Assembly (NCBI RefSeq): GCF_003334335.1
Contig: NZ_QOWQ01000057.1
Source of the DNA: Escherichia coli
GTDB lineage: Bacteria; Pseudomonadota; Gammaproteobacteria; Enterobacterales; Enterobacteriaceae
Direction: 5' to 3' (one strand)
Length of the DNA: 17,995 nt
Shown: piece by piece, positions 116 to 140 of the stretch
Layout of the letters: each line of letters opens with the position of its first letter
Numbering within the stretch: position 1 is the first letter of the stretch
Translations under genes and position numbers: made by a program
Notes under the pieces: model-generated
What the model was told of the DNA's origin: nothing
What the model saw: only the letters and a program-made list of their open reading frames with translations
Database searches by the model: none

Positions 116-140
116 GGTCCCGATCATGATGATCGGGACC
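116..140. repeat. 25-bp perfect palindrome GGTCCCGATCAT-g-ATGATCGGGACC containing two GATC sites, in the flu-downstream intergenic region
   Basis: Left arm 116-127 is the exact reverse complement of right arm 129-140; GATC at 122-125 and 131-134. Confidence 0.6.

Follow-up and report, generated by a model that had tools for sequence, protein, structure and literature searches.

A conserved palindrome behind the Ag43 gene flu of Escherichia coli is probably a U-less terminal stem-loop of the flu mRNA

What does a long, perfect palindrome do directly behind an adhesin gene? The question is raised by a stretch of Escherichia coli DNA of 17,995 nucleotides (the window), in which such an element separates flu, a gene of the Ag43/Cah family, from yeeR. 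The features of the locus are the following.

1-40, minus strand: 5' end of yeeR (MLQIVGALILLIA...), start codon 40-38, gene cut by the window edge
46-49, minus strand: yeeR ribosome-binding site, GGAG
108-149, minus strand: extended helix of 17 pairs, with CC/GG and UCUGU/CGGA below the palindrome and one bulged U
116-140, minus strand: palindrome; in flu-sense RNA an 11-bp stem with 8 G-C pairs and a UCA loop
116-127 and 129-140: palindrome arms, 100% complementary, 1 nt between them
122-125 and 131-134: GATC (Dam) sites, 9 bp apart in the window allele
161-3007, minus strand: Ag43/Cah-family autotransporter adhesin gene (flu), stop codon 161-163

The palindrome reads GGTCCCGATCAT-G-ATGATCGGGACC, a perfect 12+1+12 arrangement, and lies in the 120-bp flu-yeeR spacer, 20 nt past the Ag43/Cah stop codon and 75 nt before the yeeR start; its sequence, its position between flu and the downstream gene, and its two GATC sites are as an earlier note on this DNA had described them. 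(The flu start at 3007 follows the 948-aa annotation of the near-identical NCTC86 locus.) No other perfect hairpin-type inverted repeat with arms of at least 12 bp was found in the 18-kb window, and none arose in 200 dinucleotide shuffles of it; arms of at least 10 bp arose at a mean of 0.125 repeats per shuffle. The pattern of the palindrome occurs as a single copy in the window and was not matched in the shuffles. A second perfect hairpin, with 10-bp arms (GTCCGCTCT-gtgcca-AGAGCGGAC, followed by TTTGCAAAA on the plus strand), is found at 4406-4431, between a GTPase-family gene (3380-4291, minus) and an ORF (4468-5412, minus).

Elsewhere in the window, an Rfam match to the IS102/IsrC RNA (67.8 bits, 3026-3262, minus strand) lies directly upstream of the Ag43/Cah ORF and corresponds to the flu leader, a region already known. 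The plus strand carries, at 6690-16025, a type I restriction-modification operon (hsdM 6690-9128, hsdS 9122-10462, hsdR 12214-15309) in which hsdS and hsdR are separated by an inserted DarT/DarG toxin-antitoxin pair (10475-12195); an M48 peptidase gene (15309-16025) comes after hsdR.

As flu-sense RNA, the palindrome folds with a dG of -21.9 kcal/mol (z = -4.7) and is a stable GC-rich stem-loop of the kind that intrinsic terminators contain. The RNAalifold consensus of 21 haplotypes gave the 17-pair extended helix, for which the energy is -23.1 kcal/mol with the A-U pair of the window allele versus -27.8 kcal/mol with the G-C pair of the K-12 allele. The stem had been thought unusually long, but GC-rich stems of 11-12 bp are normal for terminators, and this island itself has examples with 12 pairs (the irmA terminator) and 13 pairs (the DUF905 terminator). 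Given the length of RNase III substrates, a helix of 17 bp with a bulge is unlikely to be one. No Rfam covariance model matched the palindrome at the gathering threshold, and the sole match at E<=10 was a spurious snoRNA (12.9 bits). In the minimum free energy fold of the whole spacer, 82-93 pairs with 165-176, an imperfect inverted repeat (83%) between the spacer downstream of the hairpin and the last flu codons. For a second hairpin at 71-95 the strand signal, judged by eye, was inconsistent.

The other hallmark of an intrinsic terminator is absent from this locus. Neither strand carries a U/T-tract, and a terminator scan of positions 1-500 returned no terminator-like site. Past the stem, the sense strand continues with CGGACCGG, 8 nt that give a G/C-rich hybrid, and the antisense strand with ACAAAGAG. 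The C/G ratio downstream of the stem is 1.18-1.27 over the next 40-78 nt, a C-over-G excess too small for a clear rut signal. The earlier argument that a hairpin lacking a U-tract on the transcribed strand is not a standard intrinsic terminator thus holds at the window locus; what it missed is that in sister islands the same stem, followed by a T-tract, is a canonical terminator.

Of 5426 complete E. coli genomes, 2563 carry the flu-yeeR spacer, each at 1-5 loci, and a 33-mer centred on the palindrome recovered the same genome set as the spacer search. The palindrome itself is conserved in 2494-2976 of the 5426 genomes, and all inspected copies lie about 20 nt past an Ag43/Cah stop codon, including those in matches annotated DUF905, which are also directly behind Ag43/Cah, in what is called below the short arrangement. 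Conservation in other Ag43 loci, which had been suggested as a check, is therefore borne out, and the possibility that the element is a common repeat scattered over unrelated loci is not: a dispersed repeat of the REP/BIME type is ruled out by the single copy per Ag43 locus and by the location of every inspected copy behind Ag43/Cah. A cross-species search with the Ag43 C-terminus yielded only three loci. The gene end of an Enterobacter asburiae plasmid homologue has the form AGGCCCCTG-loop-CAGGGGCCT followed by TTTGCATTC; it shares the stem base (AGGCCCC.G/C.GGGGCCT, then a T-tract) but has another apex. A Phytobacter homologue has an unrelated terminator. No such hairpin was found at cah of the O157 EDL933 type, where the gene runs into a dynamin-family gene. 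Differing Ag43-family gene ends are located at L138 1090-1200 (minus), L139 1100-1200 (minus) and L008 4036-4090.

The copies fall into two arrangements. In the short arrangement, seen in E. coli 536 among many others, the order behind Ag43/Cah is AGGCCCCGGTCATCATGACCGGGGCCT, TTTACTT, and a DUF905 or DUF932 gene; this arrangement was found at a query coverage of at least 80% in 2669 E. coli genomes. The stem is followed there by TTTTACTT, which scores as an intrinsic terminator, and the form in E. coli 536 was called terminator-like by our scan. In the long arrangement (the window, K-12, and strain 503025), CGGACC... begins right at the end of the stem and leads into yeeR and irmA. Behind irmA there is a second hairpin, AGCCTCTGTCACAACGCGTGGCAGAGGCT, and then TTTTATTTATCAGGAG...ATG, whose homologue in the short form is the T-tract with the DUF905 leader. 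The homologous T-tract thus lies about 3 kb past the stem, the first canonical terminator of the long locus comes after irmA, and a U-tract directly behind the Ag43 stem is a property of the short-type sister loci only. Because yeeR and irmA begin directly behind the stem and the counterpart of the T-tract lies behind irmA, the yeeR-irmA block separates the two parts of the Ag43 terminator, stem and T-tract, and fits exactly between them, which is why the window island has no U-tract at the stem. Ag43 loci can accordingly be sorted by the eight bases past the stem into "short" loci, which are terminated, and "long" loci, which are read through to irmA.

Two further observations concern rearrangements near the stem. 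A cah locus (L132 366-400; L046 2381 onward) combines a long-type spacer on the flu side (CAGAACCATCGCC...) with a short-type T-tract right behind the stem, and from its sequence looks like the product of recombination or of a deletion, joined precisely at the final base of the stem. In the yeeR leader, three different rearrangements share one junction point at about 69-77 (in the flu sense, immediately after ...GGCATTAAC; loci L004, L003, L038, and L089). One is an IS66 end (GTAAGC); another, in L003 and in seven loci from metagenomes, is a deletion that extends into yeeR; the third is a join to unrelated sequence (GTGTCGTTACGGGG). This point may be a hotspot for IS-mediated events.

Natural variation bears on whether the element acts as DNA or as RNA. 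The two GATC sites had invited the proposal of a Dam site or a protein-binding site, which does not survive comparison of the alleles. The sequence is GGTC...GACC in K-12, in Nissle, and in most metagenome alleles; these have neither GATC site but keep the pairing, with G-C in place of A-U in flu-sense RNA. An intermediate with GATC...GACC on the plus strand, which is the best match in 485 genomes, lacks one GATC and forms G.U on flu-sense RNA and A.C on antisense RNA; the opposite intermediate was found in none of 2572 records. A123 and T133 therefore behave as a covarying pair that is A-U, G.U, or G-C on the flu-sense RNA. We also scanned metagenomes with an anchor placed only on the last Ag43 codons, which gave 120 loci and, with the window and E. 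coli loci, a set of 127 sequences. Both GATC sites are present in only 14 of these, so the conserved GATC expected of Dam/OxyR-type methylation-sensitive sites is not seen.

Within the same set, 74 stems are perfect and 49 deviate only by G.U wobbles on the sense strand (pairs 8:18, 2:24, or 4:22); the others comprise one C.A mismatch on the sense strand, two transversions, and one indel. The rare variant GGCCCC..GGGACC gives a C.A mismatch on the sense RNA. Single changes that yield G.U on flu-sense RNA affect pairs 1:25, 2:24, 4:22, and 8:18 and pair 22:53 of the extension, and double compensatory changes are found at pairs 8:18 (A-U/G-C) and 3:23 (U-A/C-G). When all cells are scored, 98.9% are paired on the sense strand versus 89.6% on the antisense strand, with 4 mismatched cells on the former versus 37 on the latter. 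The covariation score, with the short-type variants added, was 0.189 versus 0.145 +/- 0.014 in shuffles and was reached by 1 of 500 shuffles; on the 21 long haplotypes alone it was not significant (109 of 500), and both values come from few variable pairs in related sequences, with a small number of independent events. The centre of the loop varies (C, A, or T). The flanking spacers occur as two to three very different sequence types in recombinant combinations, and those adjacent to the stem in long-type loci differ at roughly 40% of positions (an estimate by eye on the alignment); the stem and the adjoining CGGAC are constant. This pattern of variation fits an RNA hairpin that is read from the flu strand, and the wobbles make the assignment to that strand suggestive rather than proven.

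Published transcript maps of K-12, in which the hairpin is at NC_000913.3 2074679-2074703, place the 3' end of the flu mRNA at this element. (We mapped the coordinates via the sequence column of the table of Adams et al. and checked them against thrL.) The TRS data list a 3' terminus, "Primary flu," at 2074706 with a signal of 0.944, the signal being 1 minus local read-through. SMRT-Cappable-seq gives full-length primary transcripts from a TSS at 2071316 to a TTS at 2074708, where 403 reads end and 103 pass through; 103 reads have their ends in the 50 bp past this position, and read-through has a median of 114 nt. For a second class of transcripts the TTS is at 2074706, and both TTS are labelled "novelTTS." The corresponding position in the window is as follows.

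111-113, minus strand: predicted flu mRNA 3' end, by homology to K-12 2074706-2074708; 3-5 nt past the palindrome, at the foot of the extended helix

Two independent K-12 datasets thus show a precise 3' end just past a stable stem without a U-tract. The earlier note had proposed a 3'-end or stability element of the flu transcript, to be checked by mapping the 3' end of the mRNA, and the K-12 maps agree with it: the ends lie 3-5 nt past the stem, with partial read-through. The Term-seq data of Adams et al. list an antisense end and no flu-sense 3' end, and their bicyclomycin table has no flu-sense entry. The flu 3' end is already contained, without comment, in genome-wide K-12 tables. All of the 3'-end data come from the G-C allele of K-12, and the A-U stem of the window is slightly weaker; the conclusion for the window allele therefore rests on homology.

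The transcription unit extends beyond this end. Moriel et al. found by RT-PCR that agn43, yeeR, and irmA are cotranscribed, and in an oxyR mutant agn43 was up 121-fold and irmA 12.9-fold. In a gcvB mutant, flu was up 63.6-fold and yeeR 4.6-fold. The published induction of flu is thus about ten times that of yeeR or irmA, fold ratios that depend on the basal levels of the downstream genes. In a pcnB mutant the whole flu mRNA was stabilised; the authors could not exclude an indirect effect, and the observation is consistent with a flu 3' end that is closed by a stable hairpin.

We consider it probable that the Ag43/Cah (flu) mRNA ends in the stem-loop encoded by the palindrome, the stem being that of the intrinsic terminator of this gene family, and that this stem-loop serves in the flu-yeeR-irmA operon as a leaky 3'-end element without a U-tract, most likely as a barrier to exonucleases. 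This account joins the observed structure, conservation and covariation, the fixed place behind Ag43 genes, the K-12 3' ends, the cotranscription, and the expression gradient; from these we infer a barrier in preference to true termination, and the transfer from K-12 to the window allele. A hairpin without a U-tract would no longer stop all transcription, so that flu-yeeR-irmA would be one operon, and most flu transcripts would nevertheless end 3-5 nt past the stem. There, the stem would most likely block 3'-5' exonucleases, and transcripts that had been terminated by Rho or cut further downstream would be trimmed back as far as the stem, possibly with a contribution from weak termination that depends on the hairpin. 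The expected outcome is a stable, abundant flu mRNA and roughly ten-fold less yeeR and irmA.

As 3'-end mapping cannot separate termination from processing, the same ends could be primary, if the U-less hairpin were a real, partly efficient terminator at which RNA polymerase releases with the aid of pausing or of NusA/NusG. The SMRT-Cappable-seq transcripts that end at 2074706/8 are full-length 5'-triphosphate molecules with an end-to-pass ratio of 403:103, the TRS signal is as high as that of strong terminators, and the identical stem is a canonical terminator in short islands. We nevertheless regard primary termination as unlikely, because the stem is followed by the G/C-rich CGGACCGG rather than by a U-tract, because the 103 reads that end within 50 bp and the median read-through of 114 nt point to diffuse ends further on, and because exonuclease trimming has been put forward as the origin of such U-less hairpin ends in E. 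coli (Dar and Sorek, 2018; PMC6061677). The separation of the U-tract from the stem could also mean that the palindrome is a neutral relic, a former terminator stem that is carried along with flu and has no present function in long islands, and the statistically weak covariation within long haplotypes would be in keeping with this. We think this very improbable, as the stem has been kept and its changes compensated between adjacent spacers that differ so widely, and most flu transcripts of K-12, which is of the long type, end at the stem.

A perfect palindrome folds on both strands, and the functional product could instead come from the other one.

147, plus strand: predicted antisense RNA 3' end, homologous to K-12 2074672 (minus); 7 nt past the palindrome
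34-63, plus strand: promoter-like site GTAACA-18-TATCAT, over the yeeR start codon; a lead only, which could drive an antisense RNA that ends at 147

The palindrome would then be the 3' hairpin of an antisense RNA of about 80 nt (if it starts from the site at 34-63) that overlaps with the leader of yeeR and might regulate either yeeR or the 3' end of flu, which would make the element effectively bidirectional. The Term-seq end at K-12 2074672 (minus) is strong (24034 and 26940 mean reads, in two of three sheets; Adams et al.), and an RNA of positions 68-147 folds at -32.6 kcal/mol (z -3.0). We find this reading distinctly doubtful: the end is present in one dataset only, the Cappable-seq supplements contain no TSS for such an RNA, natural variants break the antisense stem, with the 37 mismatched cells versus 4 noted above, and short islands that lack the yeeR leader still keep the hairpin. 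Antisense transcription also goes on into flu, where the bicyclomycin table of Adams et al. records it as Rho-dependent and terminated about 2 kb further on. A site that acts as DNA, either a symmetric protein operator or a Dam-methylation-sensitive element like the GATC/OxyR sites of the flu promoter, would account for the perfect dyad symmetry and for two GATC sites 9 bp apart in the window allele. We give it almost no credence, since K-12 and the commonest alleles have neither site and about 485 genomes have only one of them, common variants are asymmetric as DNA yet pair as G.U in sense RNA, the base at the centre is free to vary, and RNA 3' ends map at the foot of the palindrome. A broader scheme, which we consider a long shot, is a split terminator that works on both strands, in which the yeeR-irmA cassette between stem and T-tract would create a tunable attenuator and the stem would also end an antisense RNA of about 80 nt that begins over the yeeR start and regulates yeeR translation or flu mRNA decay. 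If it were true, phase-variable expression of Ag43 would be coupled to the immune-mimic protein IrmA.

A terminal stem-loop of the flu mRNA that lets some transcription pass, the reading that we prefer, would account for how a phase-variable operon yields much Ag43 adhesin and only about a tenth as much YeeR and IrmA, the cytokine-receptor mimic. It would also provide a natural example of a terminator stem that has been separated from its U-tract and still defines the 3' end of an mRNA.

The palindrome is a conserved element of a known kind and beyond that ordinary. The closest class is that of Dar and Sorek (2018; PMC6061677), in which precise 3' ends lie just past stable stem-loops without U-tracts that protect Rho-dependent transcripts from PNPase and RNase II. 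The flu element shares with this class a stable hairpin with neither a U-rich tail nor an upstream A-tract, and precise steady-state 3' ends right past the stem; its downstream C>G bias is weak. It differs from the class in that the flu stem is demonstrably derived from, or common to, a canonical intrinsic terminator in sister loci. With intrinsic terminators it has in common a GC-rich stem of 11-12 bp, a 3-nt loop, a place right after the stop codon, and 3' ends a few nucleotides past the stem, and the homologous stem with TTTTACTT in short islands fits the definition of one; unlike them, it lacks a U-tract on both strands at the window locus, and transcription runs on into yeeR-irmA. Bidirectional terminators, reportedly described with SEnd-seq by Ju and colleagues in 2019, typically lie between convergent genes and carry A- and U-tracts. 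Like the flu element, they are single palindromic hairpins for which 3' ends have been mapped on each strand, but the genes here are co-directional, there are no tracts, and the antisense end comes from a single dataset. Differential expression within operons is also set by intercistronic stabiliser hairpins, such as the malE-malF REP and those of papB-papA and Rhodobacter puf. The flu hairpin is neither a REP/BIME element nor dispersed, occurring once per Ag43 locus, and the sole hint of stabilisation is that of the flu mRNA in the pcnB mutant; as in those operons, however, a hairpin lies between cistrons of one operon, and the upstream gene, for an abundant surface protein, is expressed far above the genes downstream.
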